From Candidatus Jordarchaeia archaeon (GTDB lineage Archaea > Asgardarchaeota > Jordiarchaeia > Jordiarchaeales > Jordiarchaeaceae), in the NCBI GenBank assembly GCA_029856435.1, contig JAHQXB010000160.1, positions 1-27,640 on the forward strand: a DNA stretch of 27,640 nt. Direction: 5' to 3'. The translations under genes and the position numbers were made by a program. Below are positions 1,351 through 22,101 of the stretch, in pieces (the first letter of the stretch is position 1; each line of letters begins with the position of its first letter). Below the pieces are notes generated by a model that saw nothing but the letters and a program-made list of their open reading frames with translations, ran no database searches and was not told the DNA's origin.

Positions 1351-3552
1351 ATGCCAAGATTCAAACAAACCGAGGAAATATTGAAGCTAATGAGAGACAA
1401 GGAACATATAAGAAATACGGGAATAATTGCACACATCGACCACGGTAAAACAACTCTTTCAGACTCACTATTGGCAGAAGCAGGATTGCTATCTCCCAGC
1501 ATCGCAGGAGAAGCAAGGGCACTAGACTACTTGGAAGAAGAACAGAAAAGAGGCATAACAATAAAGGCTGCAAACATTTCCCTCCTACACGATATCGAGG
1601 GAAGATCATACGTTATTAATCTTATTGACACACCAGGCCATGTTGATTTTACTGGCAATGTTACGCGGGCGCTTCGTGCTATTGATGGTGCGCTTGTAGT
1701 GGTTGATGCTGTTGAGGAGGTAATGGTTCAGACAGAGACGGTAACTAGGCAGGCGTTAGGGGAAAGGGTTAAACCTGTGCTTTTCATTAATAAAATTGAT
1801 CGTTTGATTCGAGAGCTTAAGTTGGATGCTCCTCAGGTGCAGGAGAAGCTTAATAGGATTATAAGGGATTTTAATGGGCTCATTGATACTTATGGGGAAA
1901 AGGAGTTTAAGGATAAGTGGAAGGTGAATCCTGCAGCGGGTTCCGTTGCTTTTGGTTCTGCGCTTCACGGTTGGGGTTTTACCATTCCTCAGATGCAGGA
2001 GAAGGGATTAAAGTTTAGTGATATTGTTGCGTATTATAGTAATGAGCATTTTGAAGATTTGAAGGAGATACTTCCTGTACACTCGGCAATTTTGGATATG
2101 TTTGTAAACCACTTGCCCAACCCCTTAGAGGCTCAACCCTATCGAATTCCAAAGATTTGGCTTGGCGACCCAGAGAGCGAAATTGGAAAAGCCATGAAGA
2201 ACTGCGACGAAAATGCGCCGACTGTGATATGTCTCAATAAAGTTGTGGTGGATCCACACGCGGGAATTGTTTCAACTGGAAGAGTTTTTTCTGGAACTAT
2301 AAGTGAAGGGGACAACGTCTATCTTCTTATGGGTAAGAAGGGTTACCGTGTGCAACAGACGAGTATTTATATGGGTGCTCGACGAGAAATTGTGGACACC
2401 ATCCCGGCGGGCAACATAGCGGCTTTATTGGGTTTAGACATTGCTAGGGCTGGTGAAACAGTGGTTAGTGAAAGCATAAAAGATCAGATGGTTCCTTTTG
2501 AAAAGATTAAGTATGTTTCAGAGCCGGTGATCACGATAGCCGTTGAGCCGAAACATCCTAAGGACTTACCAAAACTCATTGACCTGATGCAAAAATTGTC
2601 AATTCAAGATCCCAACCTTGTGACTACTATTAATCAGGAAACTGGCGAGTACCTGTTGTCGGGGATGGGTGAACTTCATCTTGAAATCTCAGTAAAGGAA
2701 ATACAGTCAGCGGTAGATGTAGTGACCTCTCAGCCTATAGTTGTTTATCGTGAAACAGTCACCAGTCCTGCTGGTCCAATACTGGGCAAAAGCCCTAACA
2801 AGCACAGTAGAGTTTGGATAACTGTAGAACCGCTTAACCAAGAGACCATTGATCTTATAGTTAATGGGGAAATATCTGAATATCAGGACGCAGCTACTAG
2901 GACCAAAATTCTGAGGGAAAAGGCTGGTTGGGATGCTAAAGACGCGAGAAACGTATGGGCTCTAGATGAACATGTAAACATAATTGTGGACCAAACTAAA
3001 GGGGTTCAATATTTGAGAGAAGTTAAAGACACCATGATAGCGGGAGCCAAGTGGGCTACTGAGGCAGGCCCGTTAGCCGAGGAACCAATAAGAGGTATAA
3101 GAATTAACATAACGGATTGCCAGCTCCACGAAGACCCCATCCACAGAGGCCCAGCCCAAATAATGCCCATGACTAGAAGGGCCATATGGGGTGCGTTTCT
3201 AAGCGACGAACCCACATTATTGGAACCCATTTACAAAATCCAAATCACTATCCCCCAAGATTACATAGGCACGGTTTCAGGCATATTATCACAGAGACGA
3301 GGCCGCGTAATTGATGTGCAGCAGAAGGGTCCACTAACCTTCATAACGGGAGAAATACCAGTTAGGGAAACATTTGGACTGGCTAACGACATGCGTTCGA
3401 AAACCTCCGGGAGAGCCTTCTGGCAAACACAATTCACAAGATGGGAAGCATTACCGAAAAGCTTAGCTAAAGAGGTAATAGCAGAAATTCGCAAGAGAAA
3501 AGGACTTAAACCAGAACCACCAGAAGCTTCAGAATACATAGACACACTCTAA
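1351..3552 (+). CDS. fusA: Archaeal translation elongation factor 2 (aEF-2)
   Basis: AHIDHGKTT, RGITI, DTPGHVDF and NKID GTPase motifs; diphthamide loop HEDPIHRGPAQ intact; ATG at 1351 follows SD GAGGTG. Confidence 0.98.
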   Translation: MPRFKQTEEILKLMRDKEHIRNTGIIAHIDHGKTTLSDSLLAEAGLLSPSIAGEARALDYLEEEQKRGITIKAANISLLHDIEGRSYVINLIDTPGHVDFTGNVTRALRAIDGALVVVDAVEEVMVQTETVTRQALGERVKPVLFINKIDRLIRELKLDAPQVQEKLNRIIRDFNGLIDTYGEKEFKDKWKVNPAAGSVAFGSALHGWGFTIPQMQEKGLKFSDIVAYYSNEHFEDLKEILPVHSAILDMFVNHLPNPLEAQPYRIPKIWLGDPESEIGKAMKNCDENAPTVICLNKVVVDPHAGIVSTGRVFSGTISEGDNVYLLMGKKGYRVQQTSIYMGARREIVDTIPAGNIAALLGLDIARAGETVVSESIKDQMVPFEKIKYVSEPVITIAVEPKHPKDLPKLIDLMQKLSIQDPNLVTTINQETGEYLLSGMGELHLEISVKEIQSAVDVVTSQPIVVYRETVTSPAGPILGKSPNKHSRVWITVEPLNQETIDLIVNGEISEYQDAATRTKILREKAGWDAKDARNVWALDEHVNIIVDQTKGVQYLREVKDTMIAGAKWATEAGPLAEEPIRGIRINITDCQLHEDPIHRGPAQIMPMTRRAIWGAFLSDEPTLLEPIYKIQITIPQDYIGTVSGILSQRRGRVIDVQQKGPLTFITGEIPVRETFGLANDMRSKTSGRAFWQTQFTRWEALPKSLAKEVIAEIRKRKGLKPEPPEASEYIDTL

Positions 3553-3829
3553 ACCACTATTTTCATAAAAGTAGTAAAAAGCTGAAACAATCAGAACGTT
3601 TTACTTCTTTATTAAACAAATAAAAGGACTTGGCCTATGTAGATCTGCTGGGTTATGTACTCTTCTTTAGGGAATGTGAATTGCTCCAGGTCAGTTAAGT
3701 TCTCGGCGCTCGCCATAAAGAGGGCAAAATAGTCCTCTTTTTAATTTTTGAAGCTATACAAGTCACTCAGTCGCAACTGCAGAATGGTACCAAAAAGAAT
3801 TTATGAAACCTAGTTCAAAACAACAATGA

Positions 3830-3959
3830 GCGGCTGTAGTCCAGAAATAGTGTGGGTAACTATTGGACATTCTGGTCTAGGACATTGGCCTCCCAAGCCA
3901 GTAACCCGGGTTCGAAAAAAAGAGGGAAGCCCCCCTTTTTGAAATTCCCGGCAGCCGCA
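3830..3959 (+). tRNA. tRNA-Gly(CCC) with two non-canonical introns (3845-3870 at 15/16; 3917-3945 at 59/60)
   Basis: Acceptor GCGGCTG/CAGCCGC-A, D stem GTCC/GGAC, anticodon arm TTGGC-CTCCCAA-GCCAG, T stem CCGGG/CCCGG. Removing both BHB-bounded inserts gives a 75-nt cloverleaf with D loop AGTCTGGTCTA and T loop TTCGAAT. AT-rich TATA-like TTTATGAA at ~3800. Confidence 0.95.
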
Positions 3960-4111
3960 GTCCAATCTCCTCTGACCATTTATATTTATGATTAATCTGG
4001 GCTGCAAGGAATTTTTTACGTTAGTTTTTTAGGGAGTTTTGGGAATAATATTATCATTTCATATTCGTATTGGGATATTGTTTGATGTGATTTTTGTGGT
4101 GGTGATGGTTT

Positions 4112-5309: not shown

Positions 5310-6320
5310 ATGAAACTGCCCATTGGCAAGGTTCCCAACAATTTGTTGGAGAAGATTGTTTTCCCCTACGGTGGTGTTAATTGTGGCAGGGTGATTTGTG
5401 GCCCTGCTGTGGGTCAAGACGCAGCAGTCATTGATTTTGGAGAAAAGTTATTAGTTGTGGGCGCGGATCCCATTACTGGCACTCAGAGCAGAATGGGGTG
5501 GTATGCGGTTCATGTAAATGCAAACGATGTGGCAGTGAGAGGTGCTGTACCACAATTCTTCACTTCGACTATTCTGCTGCCTAATGGAGCTGATACCAAT
5601 TTGTTGGAGAAGATTTGTAGGGATATAGACGAGGCGGCCCGCGAGGTAGGGGTTTGCGTTGTTGGTGGGCACACGGAAGTAGTACCTTACTTGGAGAATG
5701 CCCTGCTTTGTGGGGCCATGTTTGGCGAGACCACCAAGGAGAGGTTAGTGTTAACAAGTGGGGCGCAGGCTGATGACGTTATAATTATGACTAAACACGC
5801 AGGTTTGGAGGGGGCTGCAATTCTTGCTACAGATCGTTTTGAGGATTTGAGTAAATTTTTAAATAAAAAACTTCTGTTAGAAGCAAAGTCTTTCTTTTCT
5901 AGTCTGAGTGTTGTGAGAGAAGCTTTGGCTGTTAATGAAACGGGAGTCGTAACCTCAATGCATGATCCAACTGAAGGGGGTTTGCTGGGGGGTTTAGTTG
6001 AGATGGCTGAGGCTTCAAATGTAGGTTTTAGGGTTGAGGAGGAATTGATTCCGGTTGCAGAAGAGACGCGTGACATATGTTCCCTTTTGAGAATAGATCC
6101 TTTGCGTTTAATTTCCAGTGGAGTTTTATTGGTGACCGTCAGACCTGGGGGGGAGTCTGAGGCTTTGAAGGCTATTAGGTCTGTTGGAAGTATCCCTACC
6201 ATAATTGGACGAGTTACTCCAAGCAGGAGAATATTGGTGAAAAGGGGAGGAGAAAAGGTTAATGTAGGAATGCGGGTTAGGGAACAGTTATGGGATGCTC
6301 TTCGGGCTAAACCGAGTTGA
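5310..6320 (+). CDS. AIR synthase-related (PurM/HypE-like) protein
   Basis: GQDAAVI, DPITG, NANDVAVRGA, VGGHTE, MHDPTEGGL and DPLRLISSG motifs. Confidence 0.9.
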   Translation: MKLPIGKVPNNLLEKIVFPYGGVNCGRVICGPAVGQDAAVIDFGEKLLVVGADPITGTQSRMGWYAVHVNANDVAVRGAVPQFFTSTILLPNGADTNLLEKICRDIDEAAREVGVCVVGGHTEVVPYLENALLCGAMFGETTKERLVLTSGAQADDVIIMTKHAGLEGAAILATDRFEDLSKFLNKKLLLEAKSFFSSLSVVREALAVNETGVVTSMHDPTEGGLLGGLVEMAEASNVGFRVEEELIPVAEETRDICSLLRIDPLRLISSGVLLVTVRPGGESEALKAIRSVGSIPTIIGRVTPSRRILVKRGGEKVNVGMRVREQLWDALRAKPS

Positions 6321-6352
6321 TTGACAAACTTGTTAACGAGAATCTTTGATGC

Positions 6353-9701: not shown

Positions 9702-9796
9702 TGGTGGGCGCACCCGGATTCGAACCGGGGATTCGGCTCCCAGAAAGGATTTACCGCGGTGTGAACGCGGTGTCATAACCACTAGACCATGCGCCC
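9702..9796 (-). tRNA. tRNA-Val(CAC), CCA encoded, with a 19-nt intron in the variable loop (9732-9750)
   Basis: Minus strand: GGGCGCA acceptor/TGCGCCC-ACCA, anticodon arm CCGCG-TTCACAC-CGCGG, T arm CCCGG-TTCGAAT-CCGGG. Removing the insert restores the 5-nt variable loop TAATC and a 76-nt tRNA. Confidence 0.93.
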
Positions 9797-20052: not shown

Positions 20053-22101
20053 TTAATCCTTCTTTTTCTCGGTGAGCTCAACGGCAACACCTTTTTTACA
20101 TTGTTTCATCTCTAACCCACTCATATTAGATATCCCCACAGCAATTAGTTCTTTTTCCACATTGTAGATCATTACAGAGTCTCCCGGTCTAATCTGTGGG
20201 TCTGCATCTTTAACGCCTGGGGCGAAAAGGTGTTTCCCCTCCAGAATATATCCATCAAATTCTATCCAATAGCCGTGACCAACTAACCTTTCGGCGCCTT
20301 TTAGAGTCATTCTAAGTAAACCAAATATTGGGGTAAATACAGTAATTAATCTTTGATCTACTAAAATTTTCACATTCCCCATTCTATCTCTCCTAAAATC
20401 TGCATCGTTAGGTATTAACTTTTCTGCGGCGCCTATCCCGAATTGGTAGTCAGCGATTTTTCTTAAATAGTCTATTGTCCCAATCTTTTTAGAGCCTGAC
20501 AAGTCAGCATACTCTTCTAGAGTTCTTTTTAAACTAGACAAGCTTTTTTCTCCAGCTATGTTGCCGCTCACCTCGGTGAATATAATATCTTTTCCAGAAA
20601 TCTCAGAAGCCTTTAAACAGGCTTTGCGGTACCCTCCATCTAAATGTGCTATTACCACCGTTTCTTTATCTAACTTTTCCAAATATTTTGAAAGAGAACT
20701 TGAAGCAATTTCTATTTCTTCGTAATTCCAATCGCCTGTCACGGGAATATCATAATGCGCAGCGGGATAAACTTGTTCTAGCTCTCTTGGAACAAGTCCA
20801 AGAGGGGACGAAAGTATAACCTCTTGTATCATTCCCTTACCAACACTTCTTATAACTTCCCTAAACCTTTTATGTGATTGTGAAAGTGAATAGGGCTTTT
20901 TTGCAGAACAAGGTAAAATGACTACCGTTTTGATACCTATGATGGGAGTATATCGTTCTGAAACCCTTATTCTAAATCGTTTAATTTCCGGCCTATTATA
21001 GGACTCCGACCCTATGCAACAAACCAATCCCTTTTTAGCAACTGGAGTATACTCCTCAAGAAAATTATAGTGAGTGTTATCCATAATTCGAAGAGAGGCC
21101 GCCATTGCCGGCGAGTAATGTGATGATAGCTCCACCCTCTCCCGCAGGAACCCCTCTCTTATATCTAACCTAATCTTTTTTAATACAGAAGTTGAAAAAA
21201 GAATGTTGTGTTGCAATAATTTATAAAATCGCTCGTTTGAATGCATCTCTCTTAATTCAGAAATAGTGTATGTCGAGCATATCTCACAGTTGCAAGGAAG
21301 CTCAACTAGATCCCAAACCTTTTTTGACCCAGCTTCTTGTAATAAATTATTTCTTCTTGCCTCCTGTATCATAAGTGTTGTATCGAAAATATCAACTCCG
21401 AAATAAACTAGATGAGAATAATATGCGGGATGAATTGGACCCGGAACATAAACTAAAGAGTTGGGCGAAATTTTTCCCCTGACCTTTATGATAAATTCAA
21501 CCAACTCACGGGGATTCCCTATAACATCGCATATATTCTTCAAAATATAAACGTCAAAACCTAGTTGAGAGAGATCATCTATGTGCTTTTCACACAGATC
21601 GAAATACCTTGAATAGAACATTGGAACCGCGAGATACCTTTTTTCAGCTCTTTCTTTGAAATAGACAGAATTCTTAAATAGATTATCGAAAAATTTTCTA
21701 GTATTTTCCCGTTCCAGTTCTAAAAAAAGGCCACATGGAACTGTTAAAATCTTTGGCTGTAATTTTAATTGATCTTCCAAACATTGATCTAAGTTGTCAT
21801 AAATGAGAGGATTGGCCGTGTTTGTCATAAAAACATTCGCATAACTGTTTTCTTTTAAAGAGTCAGGGAGAATATTAAAAATTAACATTTCTTCAGAAAC
21901 ATAATTTATATGAGGGTATTTAGCATGGATAATTGAGGGTGTTAGAATTTTTTTATCTATTAACTCTATTCTTCCAATTCTACCCGGGCCATCATGTTTG
22001 GCGACTTCAAAAATGGGCTTTTTATCTTCTTCCAAATTTAGCCACGCCTCGATAGTTAGTCTTGTAAAATATTGATTTTTAAAATCCAGCAGGGTTACCA
22101 A
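20053..22101 (-). CDS. arcS: Archaeosine synthase alpha subunit ArcS (TGT-like, ArcS core and PUA domains)
   Basis: HDGPGRIG, LPCSAKKPYSLSQSH, YDIPVTGDW and PUA segment LFAPGVKDADPQIRPGD. Confidence 0.92.
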   Translation of the reverse strand: MVTLLDFKNQYFTRLTIEAWLNLEEDKKPIFEVAKHDGPGRIGRIELIDKKILTPSIIHAKYPHINYVSEEMLIFNILPDSLKENSYANVFMTNTANPLIYDNLDQCLEDQLKLQPKILTVPCGLFLELERENTRKFFDNLFKNSVYFKERAEKRYLAVPMFYSRYFDLCEKHIDDLSQLGFDVYILKNICDVIGNPRELVEFIIKVRGKISPNSLVYVPGPIHPAYYSHLVYFGVDIFDTTLMIQEARRNNLLQEAGSKKVWDLVELPCNCEICSTYTISELREMHSNERFYKLLQHNILFSTSVLKKIRLDIREGFLRERVELSSHYSPAMAASLRIMDNTHYNFLEEYTPVAKKGLVCCIGSESYNRPEIKRFRIRVSERYTPIIGIKTVVILPCSAKKPYSLSQSHKRFREVIRSVGKGMIQEVILSSPLGLVPRELEQVYPAAHYDIPVTGDWNYEEIEIASSSLSKYLEKLDKETVVIAHLDGGYRKACLKASEISGKDIIFTEVSGNIAGEKSLSSLKRTLEEYADLSGSKKIGTIDYLRKIADYQFGIGAAEKLIPNDADFRRDRMGNVKILVDQRLITVFTPIFGLLRMTLKGAERLVGHGYWIEFDGYILEGKHLFAPGVKDADPQIRPGDSVMIYNVEKELIAVGISNMSGLEMKQCKKGVAVELTEKKKD

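Follow-up and report, generated by a model that had tools for sequence, protein, structure and literature searches.

A tRNA-Gly(CCC) gene with two BHB introns, in the D loop and the T loop, in a Freyarchaeia/Jordarchaeia (Asgard) archaeon

Introduction

The closest described counterpart of the gene reported here is found in the complete genome of Ca. Freyarchaeota SRVP19_Freyarchaeia-1 (CP147778.1, 3,576,204 bp), in which tRNA #19 is listed as Gly CCC at 1739627-1739754 with two introns and a tRNAscan-SE score of 89.6 bits, as the one Gly(CCC) entry of this closed genome (Valentin-Alvarado 2024, PMC11291895, Supplementary Data 4). According to the same study, introns interrupt 92-95% of tRNA genes in the complete genomes of Atabeyarchaeia and Freyarchaeia; they often sit at non-canonical positions, and several occur together in over half of the genes. 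A motif-free census of the Freyrarchaeaceae, Jordiarchaeaceae and Atabeyarchaeaceae arrives at 2.2-2.4 intervening sequences per tRNA gene (Goswami 2026 preprint, 10.64898/2026.10.13.758758), and with about 2.2-2.4 introns per gene the Freyarchaeia/Jordarchaeia and Atabeyarchaeia possess the most interrupted tRNA genes known. The census further depicts D-arm insertions as often missed, the rate of canonical bulge-helix-bulge (BHB) motifs as highest in the T arm and gains as repeated, with two paralogues of the splicing endonuclease EndA in 44 of 60 genomes and intron copying between tRNA genes being rare in Asgard archaea (1.5%, versus 28% in the Thermoproteales comparison).

Outside of this lineage, multi-intron tRNAs are found in the Thermoproteales, for instance tRNA-Pro(UGG) of Pyrobaculum islandicum, which is interrupted at 25/26, 37/38 and 56/57 (reviewed in PMC4090602; Sugahara 2007/2008), and 59/60 is among the non-canonical intron positions (Yoshihisa 2014). 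Endonucleases with (alpha-beta)2 architecture and an L1/CSL loop have been described in Asgard archaea and linked to relaxed-motif cleavage, as has the role of Lys44 within the specific loop of Aeropyrum pernix EndA (Kaneta 2018, PMC5829648). A D-arm intron of the relaxed HBh' class is found in pre-tRNA-Glu(UUC) of Methanopyrus kandleri, whose own EndA is devoid of the specific loop and cuts HBh' motifs inefficiently (same study).

The window analysed here, i.e. the whole stretch of 27,640 nucleotides, contains the same gene as CP147778.1 (same genus, G005 below) with introns at the same positions, 15/16 and 59/60, and a tRNA-Val(CAC) gene lies about 5 kb downstream in both. The BHB boundaries computed here for CP147778.1 are 1739642-1739663 and 1739710-1739737, in exact agreement with the introns that tRNAscan-SE gave in the published table. 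The two copies differ in sequence (exons 92%, introns 69-76% identical), in intron length (22 and 28 nt in CP147778.1 versus 26 and 29 nt in the window) and in the 3' CCA, which is encoded in CP147778.1 and missing from the window copy. The source genome belongs to the Freyarchaeia/Jordarchaeia lineage, the coordinates of three tRNA genes in G005 equalling those of the published table, and the Freyarchaeota are classified in Promethearchaeati, the Asgard kingdom. The two-intron tRNA-Gly(CCC) gene is already known, and the sequence-only reading of the window from which this work started is a correct rediscovery of it.

As in the families of the motif-free census, T-arm and D-arm introns occur in the window genome together with a predicted (alpha-beta)2 EndA background; the census stresses D-arm insertions missed by annotation, whereas the D-loop intron of the window has a clear HBh' motif and is called in the sister genome. 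Several BHB introns and non-canonical positions including 59/60 are shared with the multi-intron tRNAs of Thermoproteales, and so, it appears, is the kind of EndA, a loop-bearing heterotetramer, but the window lineage is an Asgard lineage carrying PolD. Contrary to the M. kandleri enzyme, the alpha-like subunit of the window genome has both the loop and its lysine.

Architecture of the gene and its in-silico product

The tRNA-Gly(CCC) gene consists of three exons and two short introns located in the D loop and the T loop (Table 1). The locus reads GCGGCTGTAGTCCAG, a 26-nt insert, TCTGG...GGTTCGAA, a 29-nt insert and TCCCGGCAGCCGCA. A BHB core, i.e. a 4-bp central helix H with 3-nt bulges on opposite strands, is present in both introns, the bulges being AG/A and AT/T in intron 1 and AA/A and AT/T in intron 2 (the slash marks the cut after the second base). 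In intron 2 the core is seated on the T stem as outer helix h, one of the four central pairs is G.U and the inner hairpin h' has one A.C mismatch in nine positions. For intron 1, 0 bp of outer helix were found, and its class is relaxed HBh' only. Every element that the sequence-only reading had described, from the gene and both introns to the strict motif of intron 2 and the relaxed one of intron 1, is found at the positions it had given.

Table 1. Coordinates of the tRNA-Gly(CCC) locus and of further features in the window
Feature	Position	Strand	Description
Conserved upstream block	3789-3809	+	ACCAAAAAGAATTTATGAAAC; TATA-like TTTAT at -30 to -26 from first tRNA base
tRNA-Gly(CCC) gene	3830-3959	+	three exons, two introns
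Exon 1	3830-3844	+	tRNA positions 1-15: acceptor 5' strand GCGGCTG, T8 A9, D-stem 5' strand GTCC, A14 G15
Intron 1	3845-3870	+	26 nt; D loop, position 15/16; relaxed HBh' motif
Intron 1, central helix H	3839-3842 / 3865-3868	+	GTCC/GGAC
Intron 1, inner hairpin h'	3846-3851 / 3859-3864	+	AATAGT/ACTATT, 6 bp
Exon 2	3871-3916	+	positions 16-59: D-loop remainder, D-stem 3' strand GGAC, anticodon arm
Exon 2, continued	3871-3916	+	CCC at 3892-3894, 4-nt variable region, T-stem 5' strand, T loop TTCGAA
Intron 2	3917-3945	+	29 nt; T loop, position 59/60; strict hBHBh' motif
Intron 2, central helix H	3911-3914 / 3940-3943	+	TTCG/TGAA
Intron 2, outer helix h	3906-3910 / 3947-3951	+	5-bp T stem
Intron 2, inner hairpin h'	3918-3926 / 3931-3939	+	9 positions
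Exon 3	3946-3959	+	T60, T-stem 3' strand CCCGG, acceptor 3' strand CAGCCGC, discriminator A73; CCA not encoded
T-rich tract	3979-3989	+	TTTATATTTAT; 20-30 nt 3' of gene
tRNA-Val(CAC) gene	9705-9796	-	one intron
tRNA-Val(CAC) intron	9732-9750	-	19 nt; variable region; H = CGGT/GCCG
ArcTGT gene	20053-22101	-	TGT + DUF5591 + C2 + PUA

Cutting after the second bulge base and joining the exons by script yields a 75-mer which is folded by ARAGORN as a full-length tRNA-Gly(ccc), in agreement with the claim that an exact tRNA would result. The product has a perfect acceptor stem (7 bp) along with D (4 bp), anticodon (5 bp) and T (5 bp) stems and displays T8, A14, G18G19, T33, T54T55C56, a TTCGAAT T loop and the anticodon CCC; its cloverleaf amounts to -31.2 kcal/mol, versus -34.5 kcal/mol for the minimum free energy (MFE) fold. 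It also has C35, C36, A73 and the pairs G1-C72, C2-G71 and G3-C70, all of which we take to be glycine identity elements.

For the 130-nt precursor the MFE fold is at -51.6 kcal/mol and does not form the BHB of intron 1, while the conformer with both BHB motifs lies at -43.9 to -47.1 kcal/mol, about 4.5-7.7 kcal/mol above. Since 4-bp helices adjacent to bulges are poorly predicted, the MFE fold is discounted as counter-evidence.

The last bases of intron 1 together with the first base of exon 2 are a copy of the D-stem 3' strand and the three bases following it, giving rise to a 7-nt direct repeat GGACATT (3865-3871 and 3880-3886). A target-site duplication was considered as its origin and rejected, as the repeat is not retained in G005 or in the second distant relative, G002; it is probably a pairing decoy plus chance.

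Flanking signals and 3' end

The upstream block ACCAAAAAGAATTTATGAAAC is nearly invariant in all six orthologues, while farther upstream G005 and G002 diverge completely, the two sub-clades being unalignable there. Its TTTAT element lies where the archaeal TATA box is positioned. Judged by this position and by its conservation, the block is a putative BRE/TATA promoter. A T-rich tract is found at a similar distance downstream in six of six orthologues and is likely the transcription stop.

Besides G005, the 3' CCA is encoded in G002 (in both as ACCA) and in the contig NJEG01000044.1; it is not encoded in the clade of the window (window genome G000, with G001, G003 and G004). Many other tRNA genes of the window genome do encode it.

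Conservation and covariation

In a DNA search of 40 relatives, orthologues were found in five of the five other genomes of the genus. Both introns are present at identical positions in the six same-genus genomes (window genome included) as well as in contig NJEG01000044.1. Exact matches to the junction of exon 1 and intron 1 occur in SRVP19_Freyarchaeia-1, Ca. Freyarchaeota SQRJ_82, Ca. Jordarchaeum madagascariense EB_bin_7 and Ca. Jordarchaeia QZM_A3. Intron lengths among the relatives range from 22 to 28 nt (intron 1) and from 27 to 32 nt (intron 2). The exons are 100% identical to those of the window in three genomes and 91-92% identical in the two more distant ones (G005, G002), for which the introns are 66-76% and the flanks 58-65% identical. 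Exon 1 is identical in four genomes and has a single change (C13 to T) in G002.

Within the six-sequence alignment the central helices, the hairpin of intron 1 and the T stem are 100% paired and the hairpin of intron 2 is 80% paired. The central helix of intron 1 occurs with the variants UA/UG and CG/UG, four of four H pairs being retained, and its inner hairpin displays one compensatory double change (AU to GC). In intron 2 the fourth pair of the central helix is GU, GC or AU depending on the genome, and the outer T stem contains a compensatory CG to GC double change. Altogether 95.8% of the cells are paired, versus 36-50% with slid partners, and of 500 shuffles only 2 attain the covariation score; by the number of pairs with changes in both partners the alignment does no better than shuffles (346 of 500). 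Covariation among these six close relatives, of small power, supports the BHB structure and does not prove it.

Detection by common tools and copy number

The unspliced gene is detected neither by ARAGORN nor by Rfam at the gathering threshold. Nothing useful is obtained with the intron mode of ARAGORN (-i) on the raw locus or on the whole genome, removal of a single intron does not lead to a Gly(CCC) call, and even at E<=10 RF00005 gives zero matches at the locus. The expectation that standard annotation may miss such tRNAs holds for these two tools; it does not hold for tRNAscan-SE 2 in archaeal mode, which called the CP147778.1 orthologue with the score given above. Genome-wide, ARAGORN finds two tRNAs and RF00005 six above cut-off, where forty-odd are expected of an assembly of 3.54 Mb and 97.8% completeness; the 13 RF00005 matches at E<=10 include no compact tRNA gene of full length.

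In order to recover interrupted genes, a scan similar to SPLITS was used, in which all BHB candidates are listed, a contiguous or spliced T arm serves as anchor, up to two further introns are admitted on walking upstream, canonical central helices (4/4) are required and every product is confirmed with ARAGORN. The sole solution at the Gly(CCC) locus in the genome-wide scan consists of the introns 3845-3870 and 3917-3945. The scan returned 14 loci in the real genome versus 2 weak AT-rich loci in the reversed (non-complemented) control. As a motif-free check, compact intron-less Gly(CCC) genes of 73-75 nt from other Asgard families align to the locus with two insertions, at the D arm and the T loop.

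An intron-less tRNA-Gly(CCC) elsewhere in the genome, which the sequence-only reading had named as pointing to a pseudogene, was not found. A search of this genome for 5-bp stems enclosing a YU-CCC-RN loop turned up no second CCC anticodon arm with tRNA-like surroundings, and a DNA search for a second copy matched the Gly(UCC) paralogue only; the gene is probably single-copy, as judged from the 181 contigs of this metagenome-assembled genome (97.8% complete). As GGG can probably be decoded by tRNA-Gly(UCC) as well, the tRNA-Gly(CCC) gene may not be strictly essential. Two scans of a metagenome contig collection for the spliced form (junction 1; exon 2-3) gave no match, which has no bearing on RNA but excludes an intron-less close homologue in that collection.

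Splicing and maturation enzymes

The idea that a PolD-bearing lineage would command broad-specificity splicing, and the proposal to classify its EndA, fit the predicted proteins. The window encodes PolD DP2, in addition to aEF-2, the archaeosine tRNA-guanine transglycosylase (ArcTGT), NrdD and ribosomal proteins, and the genome encodes two EndA paralogues of 192 aa (contig C104) and 197 aa (contig C64), both of which match PF01974 and PF02778 (N- and C-terminal domains) above cut-off. The C104 protein is alpha-like: it matches the catalytic alpha subunit of A. pernix (3P1Z_B, E 3e-45), its catalytic histidine aligns with the residue mutated to alanine in 3AJV, and its loop GQPLGIRKPKSPQF aligns without gaps to GQPLDVEKPRGADF of A. 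pernix with Lys47 opposite Lys44. The tyrosine (within DFSVY) and the lysine (within SVRKK), in conserved motifs shared with A. pernix alpha, presumably complete the triad. The C64 protein is beta-like and closest to M. jannaschii EndA (1A79, E 5e-27), with a serine at what we take, from the numbering, to be the catalytic histidine position of that enzyme. By its sequence features the predicted EndA is of the (alpha-beta)2 architecture with the L1/CSL crenarchaea-type specific loop, i.e. of the broad-specificity type, and would assemble into a heterotetramer able to cleave relaxed motifs.

RtcB and a class-I CCA-adding enzyme are encoded in the genome as well. The only rtcB gene contains itself a 30-nt BHB insert including a TGA (contig C93, 1547-1576, minus strand; H = CCCG/CGGG, 4-bp inner helix), whose removal restores the active-site motif LPDAHQGYGFPIGG. 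On contig C64 the CCA-adding enzyme gene (match 3709-4056, minus strand) lies within about 2 kb of the beta-like EndA gene (5845-6330, plus strand), and an interrupted tRNA-Ile(GAT) gene is located on the same contig (10421-10527).

Proposed maturation and alternative explanations

The best explanation of the locus, with a probability of roughly 0.93, is that a Freyarchaeia/Jordarchaeia (Asgard) archaeon has here a functional tRNA-Gly(CCC) gene, present in one copy and interrupted by two BHB introns. From the observed anatomy, in-silico product, conservation and presence of the enzymes we infer the following course of transcription, in vivo cleavage, ligation and order of events. A TATA-type promoter lying some 30 nt upstream would drive transcription. 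In the pre-tRNA, intron 2 would base-pair through its 3' end with the T-loop bases 54-57, forming a strict hBHBh' motif atop the T stem, and the D-stem 5' strand GTCC would be engaged by the decoy GGAC in the 3'-terminal part of intron 1, forming the relaxed HBh' motif. A heterotetrameric (alpha-beta)2 endonuclease with a loop-lysine alpha subunit would cleave each 3-nt bulge behind its second base, and RtcB would join the three exons, whereupon the freed GTCC would find its genuine partner strand in the D stem and the T loop would close. As CCA is not encoded by the gene, it would have to be put on by the CCA-adding enzyme.

It is improbable that intron 1 is instead retained as an enlarged D loop, or removed without EndA, with only the strict T-loop intron being spliced. 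Such a course could appeal to the missing outer helix and to the MFE fold, in which the BHB of intron 1 does not appear, and also to the finding that tRNAscan-SE often leaves D-arm insertions in 'mature' Asgard tRNAs, with canonical BHB boundaries at only 33% of the missed ones (preprint 10.64898/2026.10.13.758758). All seven orthologues, however, retain the 4-bp central helix of intron 1, its two 3-nt bulges and an inner hairpin of 5-6 bp, while its loop and length (22-28 nt) vary and one change is compensatory. Furthermore, a D loop of 37 nt would disrupt the interaction of G18-G19 with the T loop, which counts against retention. D-arm HBh' introns are processed in M. kandleri as seen by RNA-seq, and they are efficiently cut by a loop-bearing (alpha-beta)2 EndA (PMC5829648), the lysine of this loop being present in the EndA alpha subunit of the window genome; in the sister genome CP147778.1 the orthologue of intron 1 was called by tRNAscan-SE.

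A decaying pseudogene, with GGG codons being read by another tRNA, is very improbable: the exons are 100% identical in four genomes with changes elsewhere being compensatory in the stems, the promoter block is conserved, another CCC gene was not found and nearly all tRNA genes of the genome are interrupted likewise, although the raw locus goes unrecognised by ARAGORN and Rfam and a tRNA-Gly(UCC) exists. Least probable of all, at next to no weight, is a chance assembly of tRNA-like fragments mimicking a split gene. Relaxed BHB candidates do abound (about 0.25-0.37 per nucleotide on each strand), but the product is a perfect 75-nt cloverleaf with features of glycine identity, and chance resemblance is excluded because the reversed-genome control gave just two poor loci and the structure is conserved in seven genomes or contigs.

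Interrupted tRNA genes of the lineage

The two-intron gene is one more verified example of a published phenomenon, and its practical value lies in annotation: ARAGORN and Rfam/Infernal RF00005 overlook nearly all tRNAs of such genomes, so inferences on completeness and codon usage that build on their calls will be wrong if neither tRNAscan-SE in archaeal mode nor a BHB-aware scan is employed. How the introns arrive and why the lineage tolerates many of them, in protein genes as well as tRNA genes, is not advanced by the Gly(CCC) locus alone.

A partial census by BHB removal gives 27 introns in 14 genes, with one to three in each; one of the 14, the rebuilt Arg-TCG with 'introns' of 70-143 nt, is probably false. 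Eleven of the 14 rebuilt genes have a T-arm intron (seven at 59/60, four at 53/54), and the 59/60 intron is common to all three Gly isoacceptors, with the same helix design and diverged interiors. That the T-loop introns at 59/60 are a maintained lineage-wide feature with a function, and not neutral clutter, is nevertheless an unlikely proposition. If it were true, they might destroy the T-arm targets of integrating elements, or else introns might gate maturation, intron 1 lying directly 3' of the archaeosine site G15 and an ArcTGT gene being encoded in the window.

The ArcTGT of the window has the domain composition given in Table 1. Its target, which we take to be G15, is the last base of exon 1, directly 5' of intron 1 and within the 5' BHB bulge.

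The tRNA-Val(CAC) gene of the window has a BHB intron in its variable region, which is also found in G003 (20 nt). The G005 orthologue is a compact 73-nt gene, and it is intron-less in the published table for CP147778.1 as well (PMC11291895). This is a gain or loss within the genus; were the 59/60 introns functional as considered above, the difference could be a fresh gain event in which to read the mechanism of intron arrival.

Gly(CCC) genes with D-loop and T-arm insertions are also present in a sister family within the same order (L017, 1455-1578, minus strand; L018, about 1457-1585, plus strand). The T-arm insertion is 28-30 nt long, lies near 53/54, where it separates the T-stem 5' strand from the T loop, and is unrelated in sequence. 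A strict BHB was fitted to neither of the insertions in L017 and L018, and the SPLITS-like scan gave no solution at these two loci, partly because their anticodon loop CCCCCAA has C33 instead of the near-universal U33. Together with the compact Gly(CCC) genes in other Asgard families, these insertions fit the picture of repeated gains drawn in the preprint 10.64898/2026.10.13.758758.

A two-intron Gly(CCC) gene is also found at 3865-3994 of NJEG01000044.1 (L028, 5906 bp), which has been deposited as 'Candidatus Altiarchaeales archaeon ex4484_2'. The aEF-2 encoded on this contig is syntenic and has 90% protein identity to that of the window, and the contig looks like a Freyarchaeia/Jordarchaeia sequence that was wrongly binned or labelled.
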